From: Verrucomicrobiota bacterium
GTDB taxonomy: Bacteria; Verrucomicrobiota; Verrucomicrobiia; Limisphaerales; JACRJY01
Assembly (NCBI GenBank): GCA_016235585.1
Contig: JACRJY010000023.1
Coordinates: 30,560 to 94,559, forward strand
Direction: 5' to 3'
Length of the DNA: 64,000 bases
The notes under the pieces were generated by a model. That model saw only the letters and a list, made by a program, of their open reading frames with translations, did not search any database and was not told where the DNA came from. The position numbers and the translations under genes are program-made. This document shows, in pieces, positions 1 through 44,500 of the stretch (positions within the stretch are counted from its first letter, which is position 1; each line of letters starts with the position of its first letter).

Positions 1-2776
1 CGCCTTCGAGTTGATGACACTGCGCGCAGGTCTTGGTGAAGATGGCGTGGCCGCTGGCGGAATTCCCCTTGAGCGCGAGGATGGATTTGTATTCTTGATA
101 AACCTTCATCCGGTCGCCGCCGGTGAGGTTCTTGAACAGCTCCTCCGCCTTGGCCGCGACGGTTTTGTCGCGGTGCTTCAAGAGCTGGTTGCGCCGCGTG
201 GTGTCAATGGTCGTCGGCGCAATCGCGCCCGCCTCGATGGCAGCGAGCAGCGCCTTCACGCCCGCCGGCTGCGCGAGCAGCGACGCCAGCGCGGTCTCGC
301 GCACGGGCGGGGTGAGGCTTTTCCAGCGCACGGCGTCGAGCAGGAATCGCGGCGCGTCGAAGCCGGGCAGCAGGGCGAGCGCCTTCATGGCGGCGGTTTG
401 AATCTCCGTCGGCTGCTGCGGATTGAGCAGGCTCTGGAGCGGCTGGCCCGCCGTGGCAAAATCGGAGAAGGCGAGCAAGCCGATGGCCGCCTGCCGCGCG
501 GGCAGGGTTTGCCTGCCGTCGGTGGCAAGCTGCACGGCGCTCTTGGTGAGCTGTGCGAGGCCGTCGCGCGCCTCCGCGTTGCTCTCGGCGAGTTTTTGCA
601 GCGAGAGCTTGCGCGGGCGCAGCGCCTCGCCGAGTCCGGTGACGGCGGCGGATTTCGCGGCGTAATCGAGCGACTTGGCGGAAGCAAGTTTCGCGAGCAA
701 CGGCGGCAAAGTCTCCGGCGGCTGGCCCGCGCCGACGACGCGGCACGTTTCGGCGAGGAGTTGGGAGAGTCCGCCCGTTTCTGTTCGTTCGCCCGCTTTC
801 CCCTCACCCTGGCCCTCTCCCCTGGGGAGAGGGGACAGCGAATCGCGCGCGGCGACGTTCGATTTCGCGCTGGAATTATCCCGCGCTGCCGGTGCTTTCT
901 CCCTCTCCCCCGGGGAGAGGGCCGGGGTGAGGGGAAAACGCGCCTGCGACAAAACCGCGTCGAGAAAATCCCCGGCACGCTTGCCCACGGAACTCAACGA
1001 GGCGGCGCGCGTCCACTTGTCGCCCGCGTCGCGCACGGCGATGCGGGCGAGCAAATTCACCACCTCGGTGTCGCCGAGTTCGCCAAGCGTGAGCGCGGCT
1101 TGGACACGGACGCGGGCGTCGTTGTCCTTGGCAAGAAATTTGACCTTGGCCGCGAAGTCAGCAGATTTATTGAGACGCGGCTCGGCAAGTTGCAGCGCGT
1201 TCTCGCGCACGCCGGAATGCTTGTCCGCGAGCGCGGTGAAGACCGTGGCGTCATCCAGCCCGCCGAGGTTTTCCATCAGCCGCAGCGCAAGCACGCGGGC
1301 TTGGGCGGAATTGCCAGACCAGGCAATTGTTTTCAAAATGGGGAGCGACGCCTTGTCCGCGCGGTCGAGCAACAAGCGGAAGGCCGTTTCGCGCCACCAG
1401 ACTTTTGGGTTCTCCAGTTCTGCGACGAGTTGCTTGGTGCTGGCCTTGCCCAAATCAAACTTTTGCCTTTTACCTTTTTCCTTCTGACTTGCCGCCGTCA
1501 GGCGGTAGATGCGCCCCTGGTTGCGGCCCGAAACGAAGTCCAGTCTGTCGCGCATCTCGGCGGGCACATACTGCGGATGGTCAATGAACTTGCGATACAT
1601 GGACGCGACGTAGAGCGCACCGTCGGGGGCGTTGGCGGCGAACACGGGCCGGAACCAACTGTCCGCCGTGACCAGCACCTCGGTGCCGGGACGCGGGTGC
1701 GCGCCCTTGAGCATCGCGCCATTCGGCGAAATCACCTGCCGCTGCACGAGCGACTGCGCCGGTTCGCACGTGAAGCCATTGCCCGCAAACTCCGGCGGCA
1801 GCGCGTCGCCGTCGTAGATGCGGATGCCGCACGACGAGGTGAAGGTGCCCGCGTGCGGCGTGTGCAGCAGGCCGGGGTGCATCGAGGCGGTGGTCTGGTC
1901 GCGCGTGAGCGGATAGACGAAGCCGAGCTTGTCCGAGGCCGCCACGTCGGTGACGGTTTCGCTGAAGGCGAGGTTGGGGTTGCGCCGTAGGTAGCGCGGC
2001 GGAATCGCAATCATCTGGAGCGGATGGCGGTTGTCCACGGTGAACTTGCGCCCGAAGCTGTCGAAGCACTGGCCGAACTGCGCGACGCCCGCGACGACCT
2101 CGAACTCCAGCGTGTCGGGCCGGAAGCGCGTGTCGTTCTTCGTGAACTCGACGGCCTTGCGCTCCGGATGGTCGGGGCACGTCACCTTGCCGCCAGTCAG
2201 CCCGCTCGTGAGGTAAATCCAGCCGTCCATGCCAAGCGTCGGATGCGCGACGCGGATTTGCGTGGTCTTGCCCATTTCAAACCCGGTCAGCAAAACTTTC
2301 CGCACGTCGGCCTTGCCGTCGCCGTCGGTGTCCTTCAGATAAAAAATTTCCGGCGCGCAGGTGACGATGATTCCGCCGCGCCAGCACATGAGTCCGTTTG
2401 GATACGTGAGGCCGGTGGCGAACTCCGTGCGCTTTTCGTAAGCCCCGTCGCCATCGGTGTCCTCCAGCATCGCGATGATGCCGAGCGGTGTGCCGTCCTT
2501 CGCGCCTTCGGGATAGCCGCGATTTTCCGCGACGAAGAGGCGGCCGCGCTCATCCCATGCGAGCGCGACGGGGTCGCCGGTGAGCGGTTCGGCGGCGGCC
2601 AGCTCGACCCGCAGGCCCGGCTCGGTGCGCATCGCGGCGAGCGCCTGCGCGGGCGAGAGCGGCTTCTCGGCGGCGGTGAGCGCGGCGAGGTCGGGCGGCA
2701 GCGGCGCGGACTTGGATTGCGCGTGCGTGTCGAGGGCGAGCGCGAGGACGAGAACGATTGGGACGAAGCGCGTCAT
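1..2776 (-). CDS. PVC-type membrane-bound dehydrogenase domain / HEAT-repeat / cytochrome c (CxxCH) heme-binding protein; 3' end runs off the window
   Basis: Absent from the ORF track because it has no stop inside the window. Manual minus-strand translation from the ATG at 2776 is open all the way to position 1, and it is the only minus frame with no listed ORFs here. Landmarks: MTRFVPIVLVLALALDTHAQ (signal peptide), WDERGRLFVAENRGYPEG, EDTDGDG / KDTDGDGKAD, HEAT-like DARVRVQAALTLGELGD, ending at the edge in FTKTCAQCHQLEG (CxxCH). The architecture matches the Pirellula/Verrucomicrobium-type dehydrogenase plus heme-binding domain families. Confidence 0.8.
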   Translation of the reverse strand, partial: MTRFVPIVLVLALALDTHAQSKSAPLPPDLAALTAAEKPLSPAQALAAMRTEPGLRVELAAAEPLTGDPVALAWDERGRLFVAENRGYPEGAKDGTPLGIIAMLEDTDGDGAYEKRTEFATGLTYPNGLMCWRGGIIVTCAPEIFYLKDTDGDGKADVRKVLLTGFEMGKTTQIRVAHPTLGMDGWIYLTSGLTGGKVTCPDHPERKAVEFTKNDTRFRPDTLEFEVVAGVAQFGQCFDSFGRKFTVDNRHPLQMIAIPPRYLRRNPNLAFSETVTDVAASDKLGFVYPLTRDQTTASMHPGLLHTPHAGTFTSSCGIRIYDGDALPPEFAGNGFTCEPAQSLVQRQVISPNGAMLKGAHPRPGTEVLVTADSWFRPVFAANAPDGALYVASMYRKFIDHPQYVPAEMRDRLDFVSGRNQGRIYRLTAASQKEKGKRQKFDLGKASTKQLVAELENPKVWWRETAFRLLLDRADKASLPILKTIAWSGNSAQARVLALRLMENLGGLDDATVFTALADKHSGVRENALQLAEPRLNKSADFAAKVKFLAKDNDARVRVQAALTLGELGDTEVVNLLARIAVRDAGDKWTRAASLSSVGKRAGDFLDAVLSQARFPLTPALSPGEREKAPAARDNSSAKSNVAARDSLSPLPRGEGQGEGKAGERTETGGLSQLLAETCRVVGAGQPPETLPPLLAKLASAKSLDYAAKSAAVTGLGEALRPRKLSLQKLAESNAEARDGLAQLTKSAVQLATDGRQTLPARQAAIGLLAFSDFATAGQPLQSLLNPQQPTEIQTAAMKALALLPGFDAPRFLLDAVRWKSLTPPVRETALASLLAQPAGVKALLAAIEAGAIAPTTIDTTRRNQLLKHRDKTVAAKAEELFKNLTGGDRMKVYQEYKSILALKGNSASGHAIFTKTCAQCHQLEG
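797..938. repeat. 142-bp inverted-repeat (MITE/REP-like) element lying inside a CDS
   Basis: Arm 1 (797-836) is tttcccctcaccctggccctctcccctggggagagggga. The reverse complement of arm 2 (898-938) is ttttcccctcaccccggccctctccccgggggagagggaga, which is nearly identical. Each arm holds its own palindrome (ctctcccc/ggggagag). The spacer is 61 bp. Confidence 0.8.
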
Positions 2777-2953: not shown

Positions 2954-3469
2954 ATGGACATTGTTTTTAACTGCCCGAACTGCAAACAGGAACTCGCCGT
3001 GGAGGACTCCGCCATCGGCCAGGAAATCGAGTGCCCGTCCTGCCGGGAGGTGCAGCTCGTGCCCGACCCCAAGGCCCTGCCCAAGCCCAAGGACGCCGCG
3101 CCCGCCGCGCCCCTGACGGCGAGCGAGGCCACCGCCGCCGCGCTGGGCCTGGACACCACGGCGGCGCACTCCGCGCACAAGCCGCGCGGCCTCTCCGTGC
3201 CGCAGCACAGCGCGCCCTCGGAAGTTCTGATAAAAAAGGCGGCGGCCCGGGAAGTGGATCCGGCGAAGCGCCAGCTTCGCATCAAGTGCATCAAGCGCAT
3301 CTCCTGCACGTCGGTCGGCAATGACCGCTTCGACGAAGTGGTGGCGGAGTTCATCGCGGGGATTGGCGACGCCGACATCGTGAGCATCAACCCGATCAGC
3401 TACGGGTTTGTGGACGGCACCGGACGGGTGCTGCCTGACTACGGCGTGATGATCGTCTACAAGGGCTGA
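2954..3469 (+). CDS. zinc-ribbon domain protein, function unknown
   Basis: Lies in ORF-track frame 2024..3469, but the upstream part looks like shadow sequence. The first plausible ATG at 2954 gives MDIVFNCPNCKQELAVEDSAIGQEIECPSCREV (two CxxC pairs), then a Pro/Ala-rich linker and a ~70-aa C-terminal globular segment. Confidence 0.6.
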   Translation: MDIVFNCPNCKQELAVEDSAIGQEIECPSCREVQLVPDPKALPKPKDAAPAAPLTASEATAAALGLDTTAAHSAHKPRGLSVPQHSAPSEVLIKKAAAREVDPAKRQLRIKCIKRISCTSVGNDRFDEVVAEFIAGIGDADIVSINPISYGFVDGTGRVLPDYGVMIVYKG

Positions 3470-9656: not shown

Positions 9657-9772
9657 ATTCCGAAAACCGAAGCGCGAAGGCCGAAGGAATGCCGAAGCCC
9701 GAAGCCCGAAATCCGCGCCTTCGGGTTTCGGGCTTCGGTTTTGGTTCGGAATTCGGAATTCGGAATTCGATG
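9657..9772. repeat. ccgaa/ttcgg-rich imperfect long palindrome followed by GGAATTC heptamer x3
   Basis: The inner perfect stem is gaagcccgaaa ... tttcgggcttc. The outer arms are attccgaaaaccgaagc / gcttcggttttggttcggaat. At 9748-9768, ggaattc occurs three times in tandem, creating three EcoRI sites. Confidence 0.75.
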
Positions 9773-9779
9773 TTTCAAC

Positions 9780-29499: not shown

Positions 29500-30747
29500 T
29501 CACCTCACCGGCGCGGAGGTCGCAGCGCCGGCCGGCCTGAGCTTGTTCGGCTTCGACCAAAGAACGCGGGCGACGAAGGTGGCGCCCTCGGCGCCGCGTT
29601 GCTTCGAGTCCTTCATGAACATGCCTTCGGAAACGGTGACCCACGATTCGCGTTCGCTGATCGCGCACGCGCCGAAGTTGCCCATCTCCGCGCCGCGCTC
29701 GGGCACGACGACCTTTTCGGTGGCGCGCATCACGCGCAGTGTCGTCGGGCTTACCTGCGCCATGAACAGCGGTGCGCGATGGCGCACGATGTGGTCGTTG
29801 TTCGCGCCGCGCCGGGTGTAGATGAGGAAGAGGCCGTCGCTGTGCGCGAGCCAATGCTGCTGCGTGTTGTAGCTGCCGAGTTCCGCGCCGTCGTCGAAAA
29901 GCCACGGCTGCGGCGCGGCGAACTGCAATCCATCCTCGCTTACGCTGACGTAGCCGCGCACATCGTTGCGCAGCGTGAGAAAATAGCGGCCGTGAAACGC
30001 GATCAGCGACGGCTCGTAAAATCCACGCGCCACGTCGAGCCGCAACACGTTTCCATTGCGCACGAAGGTGAGTTTCGCACCATCGAACCGGCACTCGGAG
30101 ACGGTGGTGCTGTAGCGATCCTTGGCGCTCCTGCCGATGTAGAGCGGCACGAGCAGTGTGCCGTCGGGCTTCACGAGCCACTGCGCGCAGGCGTTGCGGG
30201 CGAAATTGAACTGCTCGTCATCGGGCAGTTCCAGCACCTGCCACGGCGTCCAGCGTTCCGTCTTTGGATCGAAGATCGCATAGACTGTCTGATGCGCGCG
30301 CTTCACGTCGTCAAGTTGCTTCCCTTGCGGGCTGTAGCGGACCTGGCAACCGATAGCGAGGAGCTTGCCCGTCGGCGCGTGCCAGCCGGGCGTGACATCC
30401 GCCACGCTGATCGTCACGCCATCCGATTGCTGCCGCCAATCCAGTTCCGGCGGCAAAGTCGGCCCCGTCCACGGCGCCGTCGGCGACTTGCGCATCATCA
30501 CATGGAGGCCGGAGTAGTAGTCTGATATTTTGAGATGCTTCTGAATCGTCATCACGACGGTTGGCTCGCCGCCGGTGCGCGAAGGAATGGCGGCCGCGCG
30601 CGGATGAAACCACAGGAACTTCCCGTCATCGTGTTTCATCACCGTCTCCAGCTTGACGGTGAACTCGACCGGGGCGGGTGCGGCGGCAGCAAGGACGGCC
30701 AACGGAGCCAGCAGCAGCGCGGTGAGGGTGACGGTCGTGATTCTCAT
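29500..30747 (-). CDS. secreted sialidase-superfamily beta-propeller protein, paralog 2
   Basis: The likely start is MRITTVTLTALLLAPLAVLAAA at 30747. It is collinear with paralog 1 (GSYNTQQHWLAHSDGLFLIYTRRGANNDHIVRHRAPLFMAQV), but its Asp-boxes are degenerate (SEDGLQF). Confidence 0.7.
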   Translation of the reverse strand: MRITTVTLTALLLAPLAVLAAAAPAPVEFTVKLETVMKHDDGKFLWFHPRAAAIPSRTGGEPTVVMTIQKHLKISDYYSGLHVMMRKSPTAPWTGPTLPPELDWRQQSDGVTISVADVTPGWHAPTGKLLAIGCQVRYSPQGKQLDDVKRAHQTVYAIFDPKTERWTPWQVLELPDDEQFNFARNACAQWLVKPDGTLLVPLYIGRSAKDRYSTTVSECRFDGAKLTFVRNGNVLRLDVARGFYEPSLIAFHGRYFLTLRNDVRGYVSVSEDGLQFAAPQPWLFDDGAELGSYNTQQHWLAHSDGLFLIYTRRGANNDHIVRHRAPLFMAQVSPTTLRVMRATEKVVVPERGAEMGNFGACAISERESWVTVSEGMFMKDSKQRGAEGATFVARVLWSKPNKLRPAGAATSAPVR

Positions 30748-30889
30748 TCTCGGAACAAGCGTCAATTTCGTGGCATTTGGTTTCAGGACGGACGGGCCGG
30801 ACAATGACAGAAGCCTCCGCCCAAGGCCAGCCGCAGTTCACGTCACGAATGAATTTCCTTTTCCCGCGCCCGCGCTACAGTCTCCAAAA

Positions 30890-31633
30890 ATGTCCGGCGC
30901 ACTCGTCGTCAACGAAATCTATTTGAGCCTGCAAGGGGAAAGCACCTTGGCCGGAATGCCGTGCGTCTTCGTGCGGCTGACGGCGTGCAACCTCCGCTGC
31001 TCCTACTGCGACACGGCGTATGCCTTCACCGAGGGGAAGAAAATGCCTCTCGACGAAATTCTCGCCGAAGTGCGACGGCTGGCAGTGCCGTTCTCCAACC
31101 TCCAATCTCCAATCTCCAATCTCAAACTGCCCCTGGTCGAACTCACCGGCGGCGAGCCGCTGCTCCAGCCGAATTCGCTGCCACTGATGAAATCGCTCTG
31201 CGACGACGGCTTCACCGTGCTGCTCGAAACCAGCGGGGCACTGGACATCGCGCCCGTGGACCCGCGCGTGCGGCGCATCATGGATTTGAAATGCCCCAGC
31301 AGCGGCGAGTGCGAGCGCAACCGTTTGGAAAACCTCGCGCACCTCAAGGCCACGGATGAAATCAAGTTCGTCATCGGCACACGCGAGGACTACGACTGGG
31401 CGAAGCAGATGATTTCCACGCACCATCTCGCCGCCCTCTGTCCCCTGCTCTTCTCGTGGGTCGCCCCGCTCGCGCCGCACCAGCAGGACAAGTCGCTCAA
31501 GAAAGTTCCCGCCGGGCTGACGCCCATCTCCCGCCTCGAACTCGTCGAGCAAATCATCGCCGACGCGCTGCCCGTGCGCTTCCAGTTGCAGATGCACAAA
31601 GTCATCTGGCCATCGGAGCAAAGAGGAGTTTGA
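30890..31633 (+). CDS. queE: 7-carboxy-7-deazaguanine synthase (radical SAM)
   Basis: Start MSGALVVNEIYLSLQGEST at 30890. The radical-SAM cluster motif is CNLRCSYCDT. Also LVELTGGEPLLQ. Contains an atypical insert, FSNLQSPISNLKLP. Confidence 0.85.
   Translation: MSGALVVNEIYLSLQGESTLAGMPCVFVRLTACNLRCSYCDTAYAFTEGKKMPLDEILAEVRRLAVPFSNLQSPISNLKLPLVELTGGEPLLQPNSLPLMKSLCDDGFTVLLETSGALDIAPVDPRVRRIMDLKCPSSGECERNRLENLAHLKATDEIKFVIGTREDYDWAKQMISTHHLAALCPLLFSWVAPLAPHQQDKSLKKVPAGLTPISRLELVEQIIADALPVRFQLQMHKVIWPSEQRGV
31093..31127. repeat. heptanucleotide tandem repeat CTCCAAT x5 inside queE
   Basis: The tract is ctccaac ctccaat ctccaat ctccaat ctcaaac. It encodes SNLQSPISNLK. Confidence 0.9.
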
Positions 31634-31700
31634 GCCACAGATGAAACACAGATTGAACACCGATTTCATTCCGTGTTTCATCCGTGTTCAATCCGTGGCT
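31633..31700. repeat. CCACAGATGAA-family hairpin in the queE-aminotransferase spacer
   Basis: Arms agccacagatgaaacacagattgaacac and gtgtttcatccgtgttcaatccgtggct (imperfect), with loop cgatttcattcc. Confidence 0.8.
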
Positions 31701-31705
31701 GAAAA

Positions 31706-33037
31706 ATGACAACCAAACAAACCCTCGACCTGCTTCGCGCCCACGAGTCGCGCAACGTGCTCTTCCTGGAGCCGGACGGCTCATGGCCCATCGTCTGGGA
31801 GCGGGCGCGCGGCGTTCACGTCTGGGACGCCGAGGGGCGCAAGTATCTCGACCTCACGGCGGCCTTCGGCGTCGCCGCCGCCGGGCACGCAAACCCATGC
31901 GTCGTCCGCGCCGGCCAGCGGCAGATGGCCACGCTGCTCCACGCCATGGGCGACGTGCATCCACACGCGCTCAAGGCGCGGCTCGCGCGCGAATTAAGCC
32001 GAATTACGTTCGAGCGATGGGGGCGAGCGAGGGCAAAAGGCAAACGGCAAACGGCAAAAGTTGCGGCGGCAACGGGCAAAGTAATCTTCTGCAACTCCGG
32101 CTTCGAGGCAGTCGAGGCTGCGCTCAAGACCGCCGTGCTCGCCACCGGCAGGCGCGGCGTCATCGCCTTCGAGGGCGCGTATCACGGGCTTGGCTACGGC
32201 GCGCTCAACGCCACACACCGCGAGCATTTCCGCGGCCCGTTCCGCTCGCAGCTCGGTGAGTTTGGACATTTCGTCAGGTTTCCCGGCGAGCGGAGTGCTC
32301 TCAAAGAAGTGGCGCAGAACATTACCAAGCTTTTCCGCCGCCACAAAACCGGCGCGATTCTCGTCGAGCCAATCCAGGCGCGTGGTGGCTGCAACATTCT
32401 GCCGACGGGATTCCTCCCGCTGCTCCGCAAACTATGCGACCGGCACGGCGCGCTGCTGATTCTCGACGAGATTTACACCGGCTTTGGCCGCACGGGAAAA
32501 TGGTTCGCCTGCGAGCACAGCGGCGTGGTTCCCGATTTAATCTGCCTTGGCAAGGCGCTCACTGGCGGTTTCCCGCTCTCGGCCTGCGTGGGTCGCGCCG
32601 ACGTGATGGACGCCGCGTGGCCGCCGTCCTCTGGCGAGGCGATTCACACCAGCACCTTCCTCGGCCACCCCGTCGGCTGTGCGATGGCCCTGGCGCAGAT
32701 GGAGGAAATCAAGCGGTTGAAACTGTGCGCGCGCAGCGCGCGGCTGGGAAAGGTTCTGCTGGCCAAGCTTCGTTCAATTCAAAATTCAAAACTCAAAACT
32801 CAAAACTCCGCTCGCGCACTCGGCCTCATGGCCGGCCTCGAACTCCGCCGCGCCGACGGCTCGCCCGCGAGCGCCGAGACGATGCACGTCATCAAGGCCA
32901 TGCTCCATCGCGGCTTCATCCTGCTGCCGGAGGGCGCGCACGGCAACGTCATCAGCTTCACGCCGCCGCTGACCATCACGGAGGCGCAACTGCGCGCCAC
33001 GGTCAAAGCACTCGCCGAGGTTTTGGCCACAGATTGA
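31706..33037 (+). CDS. class III (PLP-dependent) aminotransferase, acetylornithine/GABA aminotransferase-like
   Basis: 443 aa. Contains NSGFEAVEAALK, LILDEIYTGFGRTGKWFACEH and the PLP-lysine context CLGKALTGGFPLSA. Confidence 0.85.
   Translation: MTTKQTLDLLRAHESRNVLFLEPDGSWPIVWERARGVHVWDAEGRKYLDLTAAFGVAAAGHANPCVVRAGQRQMATLLHAMGDVHPHALKARLARELSRITFERWGRARAKGKRQTAKVAAATGKVIFCNSGFEAVEAALKTAVLATGRRGVIAFEGAYHGLGYGALNATHREHFRGPFRSQLGEFGHFVRFPGERSALKEVAQNITKLFRRHKTGAILVEPIQARGGCNILPTGFLPLLRKLCDRHGALLILDEIYTGFGRTGKWFACEHSGVVPDLICLGKALTGGFPLSACVGRADVMDAAWPPSSGEAIHTSTFLGHPVGCAMALAQMEEIKRLKLCARSARLGKVLLAKLRSIQNSKLKTQNSARALGLMAGLELRRADGSPASAETMHVIKAMLHRGFILLPEGAHGNVISFTPPLTITEAQLRATVKALAEVLATD
32032..32059. 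repeat. heptanucleotide tandem repeat GGCAAAN x4 inside the aminotransferase gene
   Basis: The tract is ggcaaaa ggcaaac ggcaaac ggcaaaa. It encodes AKGKRQTAK. Confidence 0.85.
32774..32807. repeat. heptanucleotide tandem repeat CAAAAYT (~4.9 copies) inside the aminotransferase gene
   Basis: The tract is tcaatt caaaatt caaaact caaaact caaaact. It encodes IQNSKLKTQNS. Confidence 0.9.
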
Positions 33038-33241
33038 CACAGATGCTCACAGATATGATGAGACCTTTGCAAAAGCCACCATTCCGGCGGAGCGCCGGGC
33101 ATTGCTCGGCAAGCAACCCTCGAAAACCGGGCCGAGCGATGCTCGGCGTTCCGGTGATGCGGGAGTTTTGCGGAGATCTCAAGATTTCCCGCCGAGACAC
33201 CGGATGTTATTCATCTGTGCTTATCTGTGTTCATCTGTGGC
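33026..33241. repeat. 216-bp MITE-like element with CCACAGAT-type terminal inverted repeats and nested GC-rich hairpins
   Basis: The left arm is gccacagattgacacagatgctcacagatatga and the right arm is tcatctgtgcttatctgtgttcatctgtggc. Inside are the palindrome gccgagcgatgctcggc and its imperfect partner gccgggcattgctcggc. Confidence 0.8.
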
Positions 33242-33254
33242 TGCTTTTCTTCCC

Positions 33255-34106
33255 ATGACGCTCACGGAAATGCGACAGATACTCGGCACGCGCGGCATCC
33301 AGCTCACCAAGTCGCTCGGCCAGAATTTCCTCCATGACGGCAACCAGCTTCGTCGCATCGTCGCGGCGGCGGAACTGACCAAGGCCGACAAAGTGCTCGA
33401 AATCGGCCCCGGCCTCGGCCCGCTCACGGAACTGCTGCTGGCGCAGGCCGGCGAAGTGCTGGCGGTGGAGATGGACAGACGGTTGGTGGAGTTTCTGCGC
33501 GAGCACTTCAATTCAAAACTCAAAACTCAAAACTCAAACCTTCAACTGCACCACGCCGACGCGCTCAAATTCCTCCGCGACGAACCGCGCGACTGGTCGG
33601 ACTGGAAGCTCGTCGCCAACCTCCCCTACTCCGTCGCCTCGCCGATTCTTGTCGAACTGGCACAGGCCGAGCACAGCCCGAAACTCATCGTCGTCACGCT
33701 CCAGCTCGAAGTCGCCCGCCGCTTGATGGCCGGGGCCGACACCGACGACTACGGCGTGCTCACGCTGCTTGTGCAGCTCCGCTATCAGCCGCGCGAATGG
33801 TTCAAGATACCGGCGACGTGCTTCTTCCCCGCACCGGACGTGGAATCCGCGTGCGTCACGCTGGAACGGCGCGCGCAGCCGCTGTTGCGCCGCGCGCAGG
33901 AGACCGTGTTCACCCGGCTGGTGAAGCTCGCTTTCTCGCAACGGCGCAAGATGATGCTCAAGCTGCTCAAGCAACACTGGCCGGTGGAAAAACTGGCGGG
34001 CGCGTTTGCGGAGCTGAAGATTTCTCCGCAGGAGCGCGCGGAGAAACTCACGCTCGAACAATTCGCCCGGCTCACCCGACTGCTGAACACATCAAGTGAA
34101 ACCTGA
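33255..34106 (+). CDS. rsmA: 16S rRNA (adenine1518/1519-N6)-dimethyltransferase
   Basis: Start MTLTEMRQILGTRGIQLTKSLGQNFLHD at 33255. SAM motif VLEIGPGLGPLT, and ANLPYSVASPIL. Confidence 0.9.
   Translation: MTLTEMRQILGTRGIQLTKSLGQNFLHDGNQLRRIVAAAELTKADKVLEIGPGLGPLTELLLAQAGEVLAVEMDRRLVEFLREHFNSKLKTQNSNLQLHHADALKFLRDEPRDWSDWKLVANLPYSVASPILVELAQAEHSPKLIVVTLQLEVARRLMAGADTDDYGVLTLLVQLRYQPREWFKIPATCFFPAPDVESACVTLERRAQPLLRRAQETVFTRLVKLAFSQRRKMMLKLLKQHWPVEKLAGAFAELKISPQERAEKLTLEQFARLTRLLNTSSET
33508..33547. repeat. heptanucleotide tandem repeat CAAAACT (~5.5 copies) inside rsmA
   Basis: The tract is tcaatt caaaact caaaact caaaact caaacct tcaact. It encodes FNSKLKTQNSNLQL. Confidence 0.9.
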
Positions 34107-34484
34107 CTCCCAAGGGCGAATCCTCCTCCTCGCATCGGTTGCGGTTGCTGCCTTCGGAAGTTTTGGCTGTCTGAATATTCCCCGCAGCGCGAGAAGGAAG
34201 GTGCCCGGGTGGAGCATATTCGTGCCGCTCGCGAACACGCGGCGAGGTTCATGCTTTTGACTGCTGGCACTTCCCCTCGCTGGCCTGACAACAGCGGGTC
34301 GTGGCGAAGGCGGGCGAGCGAGTTGCTGCGCTGGTGCAATGCGCGGAAAGCCCGGCTCACCGCCACTCGCCTCCTCGACGCCACCTCCAACAAATCCTGG
34401 TCGCCGCCTGGCCAAACCGCCCCGTCCGCCGTGTCCTTCAAATCAGTTTGATGAAAAGTTCATTTTCAGCTTTCATCCCGCCGC

Positions 34485-35030
34485 ATGAAAATTGAACAGC
34501 TTCACCTCGGCATGGCCGTGCGCCATCCGCAATACGGCGCCGGCACCGTCAAGTCCATCGCCGAGCACACCGCCGATGTCCGCTTCAACGACGGCCCGCG
34601 CACGCTCGCGCCGGAGACCTGCGGCCTCGAACCCGCCGAGGCGCAGATGAGCGCCGCCGGACTCGAAGTGCCGCTGGCGCAGTTCGTCGAGCAGGTCGTC
34701 GCCGCCACCGTGGGGAAGCTGGGCTTCGAGAAGCCCGACGCCGTGGCCGAGCAGCTCGCCAACCGCTGGCGCGGCGGACGCGCCGTGCTGCACCCCACCG
34801 ACCCGGCGCTGGCGACGAAGGAAGTCTCGCTGGAGGTGTTCTTCCACAAGATCGTGATGATGCGCAACCAGCTCCGCGTGCTGGAGCAGAAGATCAATTC
34901 GCACCCGCAACTGGGCGAGGCCGACAAGGTGGAGTTGCAGCAATACATCACTCGCTGCTACGGCTCGATGACGACGTTCAACCTGCTGTTCAAGAGCAAG
35001 GAGGGCCAGTTCGCCGCAGGCGGGGAGTGA
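34485..35030 (+). CDS. hypothetical protein
   Basis: 181-aa ORF with coding-like composition. The N-terminal segment [18 protein letters not shown]...VRF resembles small Tudor/SH3-like folds. I recognised no family. Confidence 0.55.
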
Positions 35031-35501
35031 AGCCGGCTTTGAGCCACGGATGAAACTTGGCTGAAATTTTGTTCACCGCGAGCCGGGGCTTGCAGTGCGG
35101 CGGGGCGGCGGGCAGAACTCGCGGCCAGCCACCCATGAAATTAGCGCGGCAGAGATTATTTTCCGCCCCGCCCGCCCCGCCGGCGCGGTTTTCCGGACGG
35201 AGTTTGGGGAGCCAGCTTCCGCCCTGCACGTCCGCGAGGAAAATTGGCGGTTTCATATTCCCGTAATGTTCCCTCGCATAGGGTGTGGGCCTGAAAATTT
35301 GCCAGATCACCCTTGCTTTCAGAAGGAAACGGGAGGGCCAGACGGTCAGGGCAATATTTTCTCACAGTTTGCTTGCAAAATTGTCCCGACTGTGGCTTTT
35401 TTAGCGAAACCCGACTCATGTTGCGACAATTAAATAAACGATCCTCACAAATGGATCGTTCGTCACCGCGAGTGGGCTTTATTCCAGAAAACCATAAACT
35501 C

Positions 35502-38500
35502 ATGAAATCCGCATCAATCCGGCGATTTTTCCTCGCTGCTGCCCTGTGCCTCGCCGCGGCGGCCCCCGTTGCCGCCCAAGTGCTGAACCAGGCCTCGGTG
35601 ACGCGCTACAACAACGGCCTCGTCGTGCCCACGACGGACATCCCGGCGAAAATTGTCGTGGACAGTTCCGCCAACAGCTACGTCGCCGGCTCGTCCGGCG
35701 GCGACATCATCACGACGAAATACGACGCCAGCGGGAGCGGTGTCTGGACCAACCGCTACAACGGCCCGGCCAGCGGCAACGACGCGGCGACCTCGGTGGC
35801 GGTGGACGCCAGCGGCAACGCCTACACCGCCGGCTACTCGGAGGGGACGGGTTCCGCCAGCGATTTTGTGGTGATCAAATATGACAGCACAGGCACGCCG
35901 GTGTGGACAAACCGCTACAACGGCACGTTGAACGGCGACGATCAGGCCCGGGCGCTGGCCGTGGATGCCACGGGCAACGTATACGTCTCCGGCGGCGCGC
36001 AGAGCCTCGGTTCGTCGTATGATTTCGTGACCATCAAATATAATTCGAGCGGCACCCCGCAGTGGACGAATATTTACAACGGCCCCGCCAACAGTTCCGA
36101 CAAGGCCGCCGCGCTGGTGATCGATGCCACGGGCACCAACCTCATCGTGACGGGTGAATCCACCGGCAGCGGCACGGGCCTGGACTACGCCACCATCAAA
36201 TACCAGCCCAACGGCACGGCCATGTGGACCAACCGATTTTCCGGTGCCGGCAACCGTTCGGACATTCCCGTGGCGATCGCTTTTGACAACACGGTGAACA
36301 ACAATGTTTTCGTCACCGGCTCGTCCTCCGTCTCCGGCTCCGGCAATGACTACGTGTCCGTCAAATACAACGGCACCACGGGCGCCCCGGTCTGGACCAA
36401 CCGCTATAACGGCACGGGCAACAGCAGCGACCAGCCGGTGGCCATCGCCGTGGACAGCGCCCGCAATGTCTACGTCACCGGCTATTCCTACGACTCCGCC
36501 AGCTCCTACGACATCGCCACGGTCAAATACGATTCCGTCGGCAACGGCGTCTGGACCAACCGCTACAACGGCACGCAGAACGCGGACGACCAGGGCAAGT
36601 CAATCTTCCTCGACGGCGCGGGCAACGTCTACGTGGCCGGCACCTCGGACAATGCCGGCTCCTCCTACGACTTCACCGTCATCAAGGTGGACACCGCCCA
36701 GGGCACCAACGTCTGGAGCTTCAACTACAACGGCCCCGGTAACGGCCCGGACGTCGCCGCCTCCCTCGCGCTCGACAGCTCCGGCAACATCTACGTGACC
36801 GGTGCCTCCGAGGGCAGCGGCACGGGCGCGGACTTCGCCACGGTGAAGCTCGATTCCTCCGGCGCGCAGCAGTGGGCGGCCCGCTACAATGAATTCATCA
36901 ACGGCGCGGACGAACTCGTCGCCCTGGCCGTGGACAGCGAGCGGAATGTTTATCTCGCCGGGCGCTCCGTGGGCCTGGGTTCGGGCGTGGACTACGTCGT
37001 CGTCAAGCAGAATTACTCCGGCGCAACTGTCTGGATCAGCCGTTACAACGGCGACGCCAACGGCGACGACGCCCTCACCGCCCTGACCGTGGACGCCAGC
37101 GGCAACGTGTATGCCACCGGCACCTCGGACGGCGACTACGTCACCGTCAAGTATTCCGCCAACGGTGCGGCAATTTGGACCAACCGCTACAACGGTCCGG
37201 GCAATGCCAGCGATATTCCCGCCGCCATTGCGACCGATGCCGGCGGCAATGTCGTGGTGACCGGCTCCTCCGCCGGGAGCGCCGGCGACCGGGACTTCGC
37301 CACCATCAAATACAACTCCAGCGGCGCCGGAGTCTGGACCAACCGCTACAACGGCCCCGGCGCGAGCGACGACGAGGCGATCGCGCTCGGCCTTGACACC
37401 AGCGGCAACGCCTACGTCACCGGCAGTTCCCTCGGCACGAGCAGCGGCGCGGACTACGCCACGATCCGGATCAACGGCACGACCGGCGCGGGCGTGTGGA
37501 CGAACCGTTATGACGGCCCGGTGAACGACTACGACATCCCATCGGCGATCACGCTCGACGGCAGTGGCAATGTGATCGTGACCGGCCAATCGATTGGCGA
37601 CGCCTATTATGAGGACTACGCTACAGTGAAATACAACGGCAGCGGCGTGGCCCAGTGGACGAACCGTTATTCATACATCCTTACGAATATTACCGAAAGC
37701 CCGCCTCTCTCGGGCATTTTTTATACGAACCTCACTGAAGTGTCCGACATCGCCCGCGCCATTGCAGTCGATTCCAGCGGCAACGTCTACGTGACGGGTT
37801 ATTCTTACGGATCGGATCCGTTTAGCTTCGGTGGTGGCGGCAGCCTGAAAGACATCGCCACCATCAAATACAGTTCCGCCGGATCGCAGGTGTGGGTGAA
37901 ACGCTTCAACGGCCCGGCGGGCACCTTGAATGACGAGGGCACGGCGGTGGACGTGGATGCTGCGGGCAACGTGTATGTGACCGGCTCCGCGGAAAGCGCC
38001 GGCACCGGCAGGGACTTTGCCACCATCAAATACAACTCCGGCGGCGCGGCGGTCTCCACCAACTACTACGACGGCCCCGGCAGCCGGGCGGACGTGGCGA
38101 CGGCGGTGGACGCCCGGGGCGTGTATAACGTCATCGTGGCGGGCACCTCCCCCGGCAGCAGCGGCGAGGCCGACTTCGCGGCCATTCTCTACTACCACAC
38201 CAACGCCGCCAACGTGGCCCCCACGGCGGACGCGCAGTCCGTTTCCACCCTCGAGGACGCCGCCCTGCCCATCACCCTGACCGGCGGCGACGCGAACAGC
38301 GACGCCCTCTTCTACGTCATCATCACTCCGCCGGCCAACGGCACTTTGACCACCATCGCCCCCAACGTGACCTATCAGCCGAACGCGGGCTACGTCGGCG
38401 CGGACAGCTTCACCTTCAAGACCTCCGACGGCCTGCTGGAATCCGCCGCCACCACGATCAGCATCACCGTCAACGGCGTGAACGACGCCCCGGCCTTGAG

Positions 38501-41500
38501 CGCCTTCACCAACATGGTCTTCGTCGGCGTGGCGGGCGGATCCACCCTGCCCTTCACCATCACCCAGCCGGCGAATGAAAACACCCAGACCATCACCGTC
38601 ACGGCCACCTCCAGCAATCCCTCCCTCATCCCGTCGCCGCTCACGGTCAACTACACCAGCCCGAACTCCACCGGCAACATCACCTTCACGCCGGTCGCCA
38701 ACGCCAGCGGCTCCGCCCTCATCACCGTCACCTCCAGCGACAACGGCGGCACGGCCAACGGCGGCGTGGACTCCACCACGCAGACCTTCGTGGTGACCGT
38801 CTATCGCGCCCTCGTGAAGGATCCGCGCGTCAACTTCCCCGTGGCCAACGGCCCCATCTTCACGATGACCGAGACGAACAACACCCTCTTCATCGGCGGC
38901 GGCTTCACCGAGGTCGGCACCAACTCCGGCAAGGCGGACGCCTTCTACGCGACGAACGACGCGGCGGTGGGCACTTTCCCGCAGGTGGACCGGCAGGTCT
39001 TCGCCGTCATCCCCGACGGCGCGGGCGGCTGGTATCTCGGCGGCGACTTCACCACGGTCGGCGGCCTGCCGCGCTCGCGCCTCGCGCACGTGCTCGCGGG
39101 CGGCACGGTGGATCCGGGCTTCACCGCGCAGGTGGACAGCACGGTGAGCGCGCTCTACCTCAATGGCACGAACCTCTACGTCGGCGGTTTGTTCGTGCGT
39201 GTGACGAATGTCACCGGAACCGTGATCACCGGGATCAGCAACCGCGTGCGCTTCGCCGTGCTGGACAAGGATTCCGGCGCGGTTCGCGACCTCGGCTCCA
39301 ACCCGTCCTTCGACAACCAGGTGCTTGCGCTGCTCGCCACCAGCAACACCGTTTATGTCGGCGGCATCTTCACCAACATCACCAACATCATTGCGGGGCC
39401 GACGACCATCGTGAGCAACAGAAATCTTCTCGCGGCGATTGACCTCTCCAGCGGACAGTTGCTCTCGAGTTTTGCGGCACACTGCAATTCCAACAGCGGC
39501 AACGCGGTTCGCGCCCTTGCCTTGAGCGGCACCAATCTTTACTTCGGTGGTGACTTCAACACGGTTTCCAATGGCACGACCGCCTTCACCAACTTCCGTC
39601 TCGCCGCCGTCAACTACACCTCCGGCGTGCCCAAGGTGGGTTTCCGCGCCGACCTCCAGGCCCGCGCCCGCGCGCTGGTGGTGAACGGCAACGACCTCTT
39701 CGTCGGCGGTGATTTCACCAGCATCACCAACACGCTGGGCGGCACGCAGACGAACCGCAACCGCCTCGCGGCCGTCGCGCTGACCAACGGCCTCGTCCGG
39801 TTGTGGAATCCCAACGCCGGCAATGTCATCCGCTCCATGGTTCTCGCCGACACGAATCTTTATGTGGCCGGCGATTTCACAAACATCCTTGGCACGAATG
39901 CCCTTGGGTATTTCCGGCGCCGGCTGGCGGCGGTGAGCACCAACACCGCCAACACCAACCAGGTCATCAGCGCCTTCAACCCGGCCGCCAGCGATCTCGT
40001 CAACGCGGTCGCGGCCTCCGGCGGCGTGATCGCGGCGGGCGGCAACTTCAGCTTCCACCACGGCCTCATGCGCCAGCGCCTGGCGGCCATCGCCACGGAC
40101 ACGGGGGAGATCACAGACTGGGATCCCACTCCGAACAACACCGTCCTGGCCATGACCCTTTACGGCACCAACCTCATCATCGGCGGGCAGTTCACCGCCA
40201 CGCGGTATGGCACCGGCAACCGGCTGGCGGTGATCACCACGAATGACGGCAGCTTCGTCGCCGGCATCACCAACGGCCAGTTTGACAACACCGTCCGCGC
40301 CCTCGCGGTGTCGGGCACACGGGTGTTCGCCGGGGGTGACTTCACCATCGTGACCAACAAGGTGGGCGCGTTTGAGCGTTCCCGCGTCGGCCTCATGGCC
40401 CTCGACATGAACCTCAACGGGGCCACCGCCACGGACTTCATCGCGGACGCCCTCCTGACCGGCGGCAGCAACGTGCTCGCGCTCGCCGCCAGCGGCAGCA
40501 CGCTCTACGTGGGCGGCACCTTCACCAACATCAGCGGCCAGACCCGCTGGCGGCTGGCGGCGGTGGACGCCGCGAACGGCGACATCATCCCCGGCTTCTT
40601 CGTGGATGCCAACAACACCGTGCAGGCGCTCATGCTGCGCGGCAACGTGCTCTACGCGGGCGGTGCGTTCACCAGCCTCACCAACAGCCCCGGCGCGGCG
40701 GGCGGAACCCGCAACCGCATCGCCTCGCTGGCCCTGCCCAACGGCGGGATTACGTCGTGGAACCCGAGCGCGGGCGGCACGATTTACGCGCTGGACACGA
40801 TTGCCACCAATGTCTACGTCGGCGGCTCCCTCACGGGAACCACTGGCGGCCAGTCCCGCAACCGCATGGCGGAATTAAGCTCCACCTTGAACACCGCCAC
40901 GGCATGGAACCCGGACAGCGACAACACGGTGTTCGCCCTCGTCGCCCGCAATGGCAGCCTCTACGCCGGCGGCCAGTTCACCCAGTTGGGCGGCCTCACG
41001 TCCGGCACGGGCGTTTCCCGCCAAGGCCTCGTGTCCTTCGACACGAACAGCGCGCCGGTCAACATCTCGCCCACGATGAACACCCTCGCCAACCTCACCC
41101 TCAACGAGGACGCGAGCCAGACCACGGTCAACCTCTCCGGCATCAGCGCCGGCCCGCCCTCCGAGAGCAGCCAGATCCTCACGCTCACCGCCACCTCCGG
41201 GAACACCGCCTTGATTCCCAACCCGCTGACCGTCACCTACACCGACCCGGACACCACCGGCAGCATCAGTTTCACGCCCACCGCCAACGCCAGCGGCTCG
41301 GCCACCATCTCGGTCGTGCTGACAGATGATGGCGGCACGGCCAACGGCGGCCTGAACAAGACCACGAACACCTTCCGCGTCACCGTCTTCTCCGTGAACG
41401 ACGTGCCGACCCTCAACGCCCTCGCCAGCGTGACCTGGAACGAGGATCCCGGCGCCAAAAGCGTCACCCTCTCCGGCATCGGCAGCGGCGCGGCCAACGA

Positions 41501-44500
41501 GAGCCAGGTGATCACCATCACCGCGACCAACAACAACCCCGCCCTCTTCAGCGCCATGAGCGTCACCTACACCAGCCCGACGAGCACCGGCACGCTGAAC
41601 TACACCCCTGCGGCCAACGCCTTCGGCACCGCCACTGTTTCCGTCGTCGTCACGGACAACGGCAGCACCACCAACGGCGGCATTGATTCGGTGACGAACA
41701 CCTTCTCCGTCGTCGTGAACTCGGTCAACGACACCCCGACCCTCGACGCGCTGGGCAACCTCACGGTGAACGAGAATGGCAACCTGCAGACCATCAACCT
41801 CACGGGCATCTCCTCGGGCGCGGCCAATGAAAGCGCCCAGGTGCTCACCGTCACCGCCACGTCCAGCACCCCCGGCCTCATTCCGAACCCCAATGTCAGC
41901 TACGCCAGCCCGGACGCCACCGGCACGATCACCTTCACCCCCGTGCCCAACGCCTCGGGCACGGCGACCGTCTCCGTCACGGTGAACGACGGCGGCGGCA
42001 CGGCCAACGGCGGGGTGGAATTCCTCACCCGCAGCTTCACCGTCGCCGTCACCGGCGTGAACAACGCGCCGACCCTCAATGCCATCGCCAGCCTCACCCT
42101 CAACGAGGACATCAGCACCAACATCACCCTCACCGGCATCAGCGCGGGCCCGGGCGAGAACCAGACCATTTCCGTCGCGGCCACTTCCAGCAACCCGGGC
42201 GTGGTGCCCAACCCGGTCGTGACCTACACCAGCGCCTTGAGCACCGGCTCGCTGGCCATCACCCCGGCGGCCGACGCCAGCGGCTCGGCGGTCATCACCG
42301 TCGTCGTGAGCGACAACGGCGGCACCGGCAACGGCGGCGTCAACGCCGTCACCAACGCCTTCACCGTGACGGTCAATTCCGTGAACGACGCGCCGGTGAT
42401 TGACGCCGTCGCCAACCTCACGCTCAACGAGGACGCGGGCGGCCAGTCCTTGAACCTCACAGGCATCAATGCCGGCGGCGGCGAGAGCCAGACACTCTCC
42501 CTCACCGCCAGCAGCAGCAACACGGCAGTCATTGACGGCGTCAGCCCGACCTACACTAGCCCGAACAGCACCGGCACGCTCGCCTTCTCCACGGTGCCCG
42601 ACGCCTACGGCACGGCCACCATCACCATCATCATCACCGACACCGGCGGCACGGCCAACGGCGGCGTCAGCGCCGTCACGAACACGTTCAGCGTGGTGGT
42701 CAATTCGGTGAACGACACGCCCGCGATGACCCCGCTGGGCACGCAGTTCCTCGGCTACAATTCCGGCGCGAATGTCCGCAGCCTGGCCGGCATCTCCGCC
42801 GGCCCGGCAAACGAAAGCGGGCAGACGATCTCCATCACGGCCACCTCCGGCAACCCGACGCTGCTGCCCGATCCCGTGGTCGGCTACACCAGCCCGAACG
42901 GCACCGGCACACTGACCATGACCGTCAACGCGGCGCAGAGCGGCACATCGCTAATCACGGTCGTCGTGAGCGACACGGGCGGCACGGCCAACGGCGGCGT
43001 GGACGCCTACACCAACACCTTCGTGGTGAATGTGAACGCGGGAAACACCGCGCCGGTGATCAACGACCAGTCCCTCACGACCGCCGAGGACACGGCCTTG
43101 AACTTCATCCTCGACGCGACCGATCCCGACCCCGGCAACACGGTCACGGTGACGATCCTCACCAACACCCTGCACGGCACGCTGTTCATCGCCAGCCAGA
43201 CAAACGTCACCTACTACCCGGCGCGCAACTACGCCGGCCTGGACAGCTTCCACTATCAGGCGACCGACGGTTTGCTGACCGCCACGGGCACCGTGACCAT
43301 CACGATCACCAACGTGTCCGACCTCTATCCGTTCGTCTTCTCGAACGCCCTGACCCTCCCCGCCGGGGCCAATCCCTCGGCCATCGTGGCGGCGAAGTTC
43401 TACAAGAAGATTGACCTGGCGGTGGCCAACTATGCGGACAACACCGTCAGCATCTTCTTGGGCACCGGCGGCGGGATTTCCACCACCAATCCCGCGTTCC
43501 AGGCGGGCGGTCTTTTCACCAACGCCATTCCCGCCACCGTGGCCGTGGGCCAGGGCCCGGTCGCGCTGGCGGTGACGGACATCACCAAGGACAAGTCCAA
43601 CGATCTCGTCGTGGTGAACCGGCTCGGTGGCAGCGTCCAGCTCCTCCAGGGCAACGGCGGCGGCGGGTTCACCGTCGTGTCCACCACTTCGCTGGGAGCC
43701 GGCTCCGCACCCAGCGGGGTGGCCGTCGGCGACTTCAACAAGGACACGCACCTCGACCTGGCCGTCATCTGCGAGTCCAACAACACCGTGGTCATCTTGA
43801 ACGGCAACAGCACCGGGACTTTCACACCGTTCCGCACCAACGCCGTCAGCGGCCGCCCGATGGCCATTGTCGCCGGGGACTTCAACAAGGACATGAAGAT
43901 TGATCTCGCGGTGGCGAACTACGACAGCAACACGGTCAGCGTCCTCTTCGGCGGCGGCACGGGCCTCTTCAGCAACAAGAATGACTTCGCCGTGGGCCAG
44001 GGCCCGACCGCGCTGGTGGCCTTCGACTTCAACAAGGACGGCCGCGTGGACATCGCCGCGGCCAATTACCAGGACGACACCGTCAGCATCCTGCGGAGCG
44101 TGCTCGTCACCAACGCCTTCATCGCCGGCAAGCCGGTGACGAGCAACACCTTCACGCTGACCAACTATCCGGTGGCCGTCAACCCGAGCGCGCTGGCCGC
44201 CGTCAACGTCAACAAGGATCTCTACACCGACCTGGTCATTGCGAGCCACTTTGAAAACACCGCCAGCGTGATGCTGGGCAAGGCCAACGGGCAGTTTGAT
44301 GATTTCTACTTCCTCGACCCCTCGGCGTCGCAGACGGTGGGGACGAACCCCATCTCGCTCGCCTCCGGCATCCTGAACGCCGACACGGATCCGGACGTGG
44401 TGGTGGCCAACTGGGGTTCGGGCAACGTCTCGGTGCTGCTGAACAACTACACGCCGCTGGCCTACAAGCTCAAGCTGAACGTGCTGGAAAACACCACGAC

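Follow-up and report, generated by a model that had tools for sequence, protein, structure and literature searches.

The stretch of DNA analysed here, referred to below as the window, comprises 64,000 nucleotides from a Verrucomicrobiota bacterium (assembly GCA_016235585.1, contig JACRJY010000023.1, positions 30,560 to 94,559 of the forward strand). Near its middle, three genes follow one another on the plus strand, namely queE, encoding 7-carboxy-7-deazaguanine synthase (30890..31633), a gene for a class-III aminotransferase of the Aminotran_3 family (31706..33037) and rsmA/ksgA (33255..34106). Each of them hosts a short in-frame array of heptanucleotide units, the aminotransferase gene two, and it is with these arrays, and with what maintains them, that the present analysis is concerned. 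The identity of RsmA is supported by the TIGR00755 (ksgA) model, which it matches with 240.9 bits against a cutoff of 171, and PDB homologues confirm the identity of both RsmA and the aminotransferase.

An earlier note on this DNA had reported that one AT-rich repeat of the unit CAAAACT recurs inside the aminotransferase gene and rsmA, and the sequence is as it was described. Positions 32773–32809, in the aminotransferase gene, contain cgTTCAATTCAAAATTCAAAACTCAAAACTCAAAACTCcgc, and positions 33506–33549, in rsmA, contain caCTTCAATTCAAAACTCAAAACTCAAAACTCAAACCTTCAACTGc. The aminotransferase array, designated site 2 (AT2; 32776..32809, plus strand), consists of two AATTCAA units, two AACTCAA units and a partial unit, and encodes (S)IQNSKLKTQNS at residues ~357–368, in the loop that connects a helix to the strand before GLMAGLEL. 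The rsmA array (33510..33541, plus strand) consists of one AATTCAA and three AACTCAA units with a decayed tail, ACCTTCA, and encodes NSKLKTQNSN (residues 86–95), starting directly after TTC, the codon of the conserved Phe85. Tandem Repeats Finder assigns both tracts a period of 7, with 4.3 and 3.7 copies and 95–100 % match. The tracts have 33 of 34 nt in common, TTCAATTCAAAA included, and all six matches to the 14-mer CAAAACTCAAAACT in the window, with at most one mismatch allowed, fall within them, against 0.00 expected from 100 shuffles. Their AT-richness, also pointed out before, is evident from a GC content of 29 % for the CAAAACT unit in a window of 63.8 %.

Both tracts are contained in long open reading frames (ORFs), the translations of which include SIQNSKLKTQNSAR in the aminotransferase and FNSKLKTQNSNLQL in RsmA, and a slippage event of one 7-nt unit would, as the earlier note recognized, shift the frame. 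The shared TTCAATTC starts at 32773 in the aminotransferase gene, at offset 2 from the gene start at 31706, and at 33507 in rsmA, at offset 0 from the gene start at 33255. The reading frame thus differs between the tracts, yet both give NSKLKTQNS. By simple arithmetic, three units of 7 nt make seven codons, and the same cyclic heptapeptide, NSKLKTQ, is obtained in any frame; the identity of the two peptides arises because 7 is coprime to 3, and is neither coincidence nor a sign of constraint. The near-identical peptides are thus real, but as evidence of a relationship between the tracts they carry no weight, being the automatic product of any heptamer array. In the reverse complement, (AGTTTTG)n, each frame is interrupted by TGA, and therefore only the CAAAACT orientation can be coding.

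Two further arrays lie in the same genes. In queE, about four units of (A)TCTCCA (31093..31126, plus strand) encode SNLQSPISNLK just before the LVELTGGEP strand, and in the aminotransferase gene, at site 1 (AT1; 32032..32060, plus strand), four units of GGCAAA(A/C) encode RAKGKRQTAK. Period 7 is enriched in the window as a whole, with five arrays against 0.06 expected, whereas period 5 (five arrays against 3.5 expected) and periods 8, 10 and 11 (no arrays) are all at chance. The two CAAAACT tracts are purely direct repeats, the ends of which grade into degenerate units, and neither inverted ends nor a target duplication was found at them. In an Rfam scan of positions 30000–35000 (E ≤ 1), the tracts were without a match, and only chance miRNA-like matches on the intergenic palindromes were obtained. 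An assembly artefact was ruled out, because arrays of 28 bp are below the k-mer length of assemblers and are also present in independent assemblies from ENA, JGI and NCBI.

Alignment to solved structures and AlphaFold2 (AF2) models place the tracts in variable, tolerant surface loops; variable loops had been proposed in the earlier note. The rsmA tract adds 5 aa relative to Bacillus subtilis KsgA and to short-form orthologues, in the loop that links the helix following beta-2 to the strand with the DAL motif; in the AF2 model of RsmA (predicted local distance difference test score, pLDDT, 90) it forms the end of a helix and a loop, with pLDDT ~77 against at least 90 in the flanks. At AT1, there is an insertion of ~17 aa relative to solved homologues, including the gamma-aminobutyric acid (GABA) aminotransferase 6wop. 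The AT2 tract, on the other hand, adds no residues relative to 6wop and takes the place of iqqatgdvvtd. In the AF2 model of the aminotransferase, which is poor overall (pLDDT 52) and was used for its confident C-terminal domain only, AT2 forms a loop at residues 357–364. The structural comparison suggested in the earlier note thus reveals added length at two of these sites and none at AT2.

The arrays are not peculiar to this genome. The comparison covered 120 orthologues each of RsmA and the aminotransferase at 70–81 % identity (P0001 and P0121 being 100 % identical to the RsmA and aminotransferase of the window) and 17 related DNA loci, in 16 of which arrays were read at the sites. The gene order queE-aminotransferase-rsmA is present in eight of the first nine rsmA-anchored loci (L121–L129), the exception being L127 with other genes upstream, and also in L130 and L137. 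In L123, L126 and L130 the cluster lies ~3–5 kb from dnaA and may be near the replication origin, which is not so in the window. At the protein level, identity at lag 7 over at least three residues was observed in 58 of 120 rsmA loops, 78 of 120 AT2 loops and 64 of 120 AT1 loops, whereas lags 6, 8 and 9 gave at most eight loops and lag 5 at most four for rsmA and AT2, with AT1 exceptional at lag 5 (30 loops).

At the DNA level, the four loop sites carry true heptamer arrays, nearly always of about four units and in a common register, with a unit that differs by genome. The rsmA alignment has four units in register in five genomes, and the units found at this site include AACTCAA, AATTCAA, AATCCGC, AATCCGA and AATTCGC. 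Those of the queE site are ATCTCCA, AAATTCA, AACTCAA, ACTCTCA and ACCCTCA, and those of AT2 are AAYTCAA, AAATCGC, AGTCCAA and AAATTSA, while the AT1 tracts of orthologues read KSKVQSPKSKV, SNRQSAIGNRQS, GKRKAESGKRK, ELKTQNSKLKT and others. The mixture of AATTCAA followed by AACTCAA, read as SIQNSKLKTQNS, is common among aminotransferase orthologues. Occupation of the same four sites in the same register at 70–80 % identity implies that the arrays predate the sampled species.

Some orthologues are devoid of an array. The rsmA short form ASAKNLNL has the length of B. subtilis KsgA and is 5 aa shorter than the array-bearing form, which is not an integer number of units; at AT2, L122 and L129 have the canonical SIKPPQGFEIEVRG, equal in length to the array-bearing form. 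In L131/L135, L134, L137 and the TAQLAGETDPQLE clade, the arrays are degenerate and their length is unchanged, which shows that point mutation can turn an array into an ordinary loop. Like microsatellites, the arrays thus undergo birth, homogenisation and loss. Absence of the tract from orthologues had been put forward as the mark of an insertion; it does occur in some relatives, but others at 70–80 % identity are occupied at the same sites, and hence the arrays are old. A neighbour-joining tree of the 120 RsmA sequences (265 columns, ~72 % identity), in which loop types are intermixed, with short forms among NSKFKIQ and NPQSAIR among NSKLKTQ, is not strong enough for a count of gains, losses or recombination events, and no claim made here rests on it.

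Within a genome, the units of an array resemble each other more closely than they resemble their orthologous counterparts. At the rsmA site, the identity of units is 0.92 within a genome, while orthologous units of different genomes reach 0.72, with a minimum of 0.43, and positions 1, 2 and 5 of the unit are invariant (AAnnCnn). The close relatives L123 and L129, for example, carry (AATCCGC)4 and (AATCCGA)4, a substitution present in all units. This is the pattern typical of concerted evolution. Because successive units fall in different codon phases, selection on the peptide cannot have produced the perfect periodicity of the DNA. The two aminotransferase sites share the same unit in 14 of 120 orthologues, against 5.8 ± 2.2 in permuted data (maximum 13 in 2000 permutations, with phylogeny uncorrected), and the sharing spans at least 5–6 unit classes, including SKVQSPK, SRITHHA, KFQIPNS, NSKLKTQ and PHSALR. 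Either copying between arrays ~750 bp apart or a genome-specific bias in units is a plausible explanation. In L122 and L126, moreover, one unit is common to queE and rsmA.

The length of the arrays, by comparison, is stable. Among about 250 orthologues, ~70 members of clusters of at least 90 % identity and six metagenome loci, neither an out-of-frame nor a ±7 bp allele was detected; these are consensus assemblies, in which rare frameshifted cells or minority alleles would not show. All 240 listed orthologues are full-length and read through the tract, and within the clusters of at least 90 % identity the tract is constant in length and differs by substitutions, with the exception of one unit swap. 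A metagenome scan with degenerate flanks, allowing a gap of 58–88 nt, recovered the six loci, all of exactly 74 nt; a metagenome scan for length variants of this genome's own rsmA tract gave no match, and the species is represented by a single occurrence among the database proteins. Between P0029/P0272 and P0273 (L123 and L130), near-identical N-terminal halves are accompanied by (AATCCGC)4 in the former and AATTTAC(AACTCAA)3 in the latter, which are equal in length; the comparison indicates what may have been a clean tract replacement or the import of an allele.

The same unit is dispersed well beyond the Verrucomicrobia. More than 120 stretches of (CAAAACT)3 were found in cyanobacteria, Chloroflexia, Bacteroidota, Deltaproteobacteria, Planctomycetes and Verrucomicrobia, mostly with 3–4 and seldom with five or more copies. 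In other phyla, (CAAAACT)3–4 is in frame in genes for DNA topoisomerase I, a GT4 glycosyltransferase, TatD and an ArsA-like ATPase, and a comparable four-unit heptamer array is present in the gene for the essential isoleucyl-tRNA synthetase (IleRS) of the relative L125. In L007, L049 and L078, which belong to other phyla, (CAAAACT)3–4 lies directly upstream of the apparent starts of AcrB-like, Der/EngA-like and MotA/ExbB-like genes (assigned by eye from translations), a position that recalls the repeats near start codons in Beggiatoa and Nostoc.

The reading that we consider moderately probable is that the arrays are heptanucleotide microsatellites that are constrained by the reading frame, lie in tolerant loops and are homogenised through slippage or conversion, with the peptide as a passenger of the DNA repeat. 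Each array would have arisen long ago at its own site, before the sampled relatives split; slipped-strand mispairing or short-tract conversion between units would keep it homogeneous, occasional conversion may also take place between nearby arrays, and the sequence of the unit would thereby drift in concert. Only frame-preserving lengths of about four units are seen at these sites, and purifying selection would be the presumable cause. Orthology, register, copy number, concerted change, independence of frame and the absence of frameshifted alleles are direct observations, and it seems from the sequences that the peptide is not a selected motif and that maintenance operates at the level of the DNA.

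Several observations nevertheless weigh against this reading. With four units and a penalty on frameshifts, homogenisation by simple slippage is expected to be slow, yet most arrays are perfect in flanks that have diverged by 20–30 %. Copy number is fixed at about four, and across phyla 3–4 copies are far more frequent than five or more, a pattern not predicted by neutral microsatellite dynamics. The unit swap within a 90 % cluster, from FNPQSAIRNPQFE to VNLQLKTQNSKFD in proteins otherwise nearly identical in that half, goes beyond simple slippage and suggests allele exchange or replacement. Finally, four arrays fall within 3.2 kb against about one per 30 kb in the flanks, a clustering for which this reading does not account. 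Together, the fixed number of about four copies, the lasting perfection of the arrays and their concentration in one 3.2-kb operon keep alive, at a low probability, the view that the arrays are functional elements.

In its explicit form, which is fairly unlikely, this view holds that the arrays are selected nucleic-acid elements placed in coding loops, with their periodicity and copy number under selection and the peptide as a by-product; an entry or cleavage site for Rho or RNase E and a binding array for a heptad-reading protein are the candidates. A block of four times 7 nt that is G-poor, A/C-rich and unstructured would suit such a role, but the AT1 units (GGCAAAA, GGAAAGC) are purine-rich, unlike the others, and there is no Rfam match. 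The maintenance of about four units at four sites throughout the clade despite unit turnover, the invariance of positions 1, 2 and 5 of the rsmA unit and the clustering of arrays in one operon point in the same direction, as do the preference for 3–4 copies across phyla, likewise reported for unrelated G-rich heptamers (PMC4692102), and the regulatory roles proposed for the intergenic heptamers of Beggiatoa and Nostoc. The units, however, vary between sites of a genome and between genomes at a site, which argues against any single sequence-specific reader, and several relatives with decayed or absent arrays keep both the loop and the gene. A broader proposal, which we hold to be unlikely, is that about four identical units are actively maintained in queE-aminotransferase-rsmA and in many enzymes across phyla, either by a process dedicated to homogenising or rewriting them or because a heptad-periodic site in RNA or DNA is under selection; if this were true, heptamers would prefer groups of four in general, whether or not they form G-quadruplexes (G4).

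The explanations put forward in the earlier note, as well as selection on the peptide, fare less well. That the tracts are slippage-prone ON/OFF switches, turning rsmA, queE and the aminotransferase gene off and on stochastically at low frequency, is suggested by a unit that is not a multiple of 3 and by concerted evolution, which implies an appreciable rate of unit gain, loss or conversion. KsgA and QueE are dispensable in model bacteria, and a switch would make cells heterogeneous in translation and might, for instance, confer kasugamycin tolerance via loss of KsgA. The lack of out-of-frame or ±7 bp variants in the orthologues, cluster members and metagenome loci surveyed, arrays of only about four units, host genes that are not of the surface or restriction-modification type and comparable arrays in the essential IleRS, in topoisomerase I and in other enzymes all argue to the contrary, so that stochastic switching is highly improbable and phase variation must be considered unlikely. 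It is also very unlikely that both genes recently received a small cassette, mobile or copied, of which the two tracts would be copies. The near-identity of the tracts, TTCAATTCAAAA included, would be accounted for by such a cassette, as would the excess of units shared by AT1 and AT2 and the identical queE and rsmA units of L122 and L126, but the orthologous sites are occupied in distant relatives at the same four sites and in the same register, the tracts lack inverted ends and target duplication, AT2 is no longer than its solved homologues and the AATTCAA-then-AACTCAA mixture is widespread in orthologues. The shared flank, earlier taken as a sign of insertion, loses this meaning at rsmA, where TTC is the conserved Phe codon and is present in array-less orthologues too. 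Selection of the heptapeptide NSKLKTQ as a polar, Lys-rich loop, with the DNA repeat incidental, is extremely improbable: the loops are conserved in length and their peptides hydrophilic, but such selection would permit synonymous differences between units, whereas the periodicity of the DNA is perfect or nearly so, and chemically very different peptides (NPQSAIR, SILHPPS, SRITHHA and GKRKAES) occupy one loop. Non-repetitive codons for an equivalent peptide, which the earlier note had named as speaking against its proposal, were not observed wherever the peptide is periodic.

Compared with known repeats, the arrays fit the heptanucleotide class of simple sequence repeats (SSRs), with at least three head-to-tail copies, an excess of period 7 and dispersal at unrelated loci and genomes. 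According to the account of Mrazek 2007 given in PMC4679880, heptanucleotides are the most abundant class of long SSRs (LSSRs) in most bacterial genomes, and slippage has been proposed as their origin. As far as these repeats are described there and in PMC4692102, the likeness extends to head-to-tail 7-nt units, over-representation of period 7, large GC-rich genomes of free-living bacteria and polymerase slippage as the proposed source. The same descriptions stress intergenic sites, with multiples of three dominating coding regions, whereas the arrays described here are in frame in conserved enzymes, are fixed at about four copies, occupy orthologous sites across a clade and have units that evolve in concert.

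In Nostoc, contiguous TTCAAAA repeats have been described (10.1101/2022.06.06.494920); TTCAAAA is a rotation of AATTCAA, these tandem repeats (TTCAAAA/TTTTGAA) likewise have at least three units, and the CAAAACT scan also matched many filamentous cyanobacteria. The Nostoc repeats, however, lie upstream of start codons and promoters and have been proposed to have regulatory roles, whereas those of the Verrucomicrobia are intragenic and translated, in a different phylum. The TAACTGA repeats of Beggiatoa are found mostly upstream of starts, and their stop-free orientation is tolerated at protein peripheries (MacGregor 2015, PMC4679880). The repeats of the Beggiatoaceae resemble the present ones in forming arrays of 2–6 copies with a patchy spread across phyla and in having a single stop-free orientation that, when translated, gives a cyclic heptapeptide at the protein periphery; they differ in being located mostly just upstream of starts and in having one dominant unit, as opposed to many units in internal loops of enzymes. 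G-rich heptamers prefer four units, which has been ascribed to G4 formation (Rehm 2015, PMC4692102), and the GGGAATC/GGGGAYT repeats of Xanthomonas and Nostoc treated there are G4-forming and under-represented in coding regions. No G4 can form from the G-poor units described here; their preference for four units is therefore not explained by quadruplexes. Literature searches returned no specific account of heptanucleotide repeats in Verrucomicrobia or of in-frame, orthologous, concerted four-unit arrays.

Rickettsia palindromic elements (RPEs) are likewise repeats that housekeeping proteins accommodate in frame at their surface, but they are palindromic mobile elements of ~100–150 bp, whereas the arrays are 28-bp direct tandem repeats without inverted ends. 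In the AT1 loop of L137 (~3300–3400), P0129, P0137, P0141, P0143, P0151 and others, an in-frame insert of ~85 nt with inverted ends, CCGTGGCTGCGCTCGT...ACGAGTGCAGCCACGG, replaces the heptamer array and reads SVAA..V...R...LTSAAT; it is an RPE-like palindromic element translated within the aminotransferase. The phase-variable contingency loci of Haemophilus, Neisseria and Campylobacter contain an intragenic repeat with a unit that is not a multiple of 3. A 7-nt unit inside an ORF is what the present arrays have in common with them, while the arrays are short, lack polymorphism in copy number or frame and are hosted by housekeeping genes (rsmA, queE and the class-III aminotransferase gene).

Two further heptamer arrays are located elsewhere in the window. 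A weaker one of the GGNAAAA type (1460..1483, minus strand; GGAAAAA GGTAAAA GGCAAAA) gives the in-frame peptide SQKEKGKRQKF; the gene that contains it extends beyond the start of the window. At 9667..9769, with no strand assigned, six CCGAAGC-like units are followed by seven of TTCGGGT/TTCGGAA; this palindromic, hairpin-forming pair is intergenic, between two co-directional sulfatase genes, and belongs to the heptamer repeat class in a non-coding form. The hairpin of the sulfatase spacer (9660–9775) could be a terminator or attenuator that pairs in several registers. A single 'master' heptamer per genome was ruled out, as the window itself has arrays of ATCTCCA, GGCAAAM, AAYTCAA, TTCGGAA and CCGAAGC.

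The spacers of the queE-aminotransferase-rsmA cluster are also repetitive. Between queE and the aminotransferase gene, a palindrome (31629–31704) is built of 11-nt repeats, 2.7 copies of CACAGATTGAA followed by three of TTTCATCCGTG, the arms of which pair on the plus strand except for a single A·C mismatch in each unit, which would be G·U in minus-strand RNA. The 212-bp spacer between the aminotransferase stop codon and rsmA (33028–33239) is strongly palindromic, bounded by inverted triplets of CACAGATNNN with nested inner hairpins, and has a minimum free energy of -116 kcal/mol (z-score -9). The motif CACAGAT occurs in eight copies in the window, six of them in this spacer and two at 31636–31653. 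In the relatives L121, L122, L125 and L126, the aminotransferase gene and rsmA abut or overlap, and the spacer therefore looks like an insertion resembling a miniature inverted-repeat transposable element (MITE) or a repetitive extragenic palindromic (REP) sequence. Downstream of rsmA, a giant ORF of 3494 aa (35313–45797) contains many 'YNG(P/T)...D' repeats of the beta-propeller type, as well as repeated Ig/cadherin-like modules and FG-GAP/VCBS-like repeats.

Among the long SSRs of bacteria, heptanucleotide repeats form the commonest class, and they have mostly been discussed as intergenic sequences of unknown function. The locus described here shows that they can persist for a long time inside conserved enzymes, where the 7-nt period frees the peptide from the frame and the loops tolerate it, and that heptamer arrays can evolve in concert with their length locked. 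The recurrence of about four copies for units that are not G-rich undercuts the G-quadruplex explanation of the four-unit preference. In Verrucomicrobia and other phyla, annotators and users of alignments should expect low-complexity inserts of heptapeptides (NSKLKTQ, SKVQSPK and NPKSEIR, for example), which are products of DNA repeats and not functional motifs. For measurements of slippage or conversion constrained by the reading frame, the queE-aminotransferase-rsmA cluster is a natural system for comparison.

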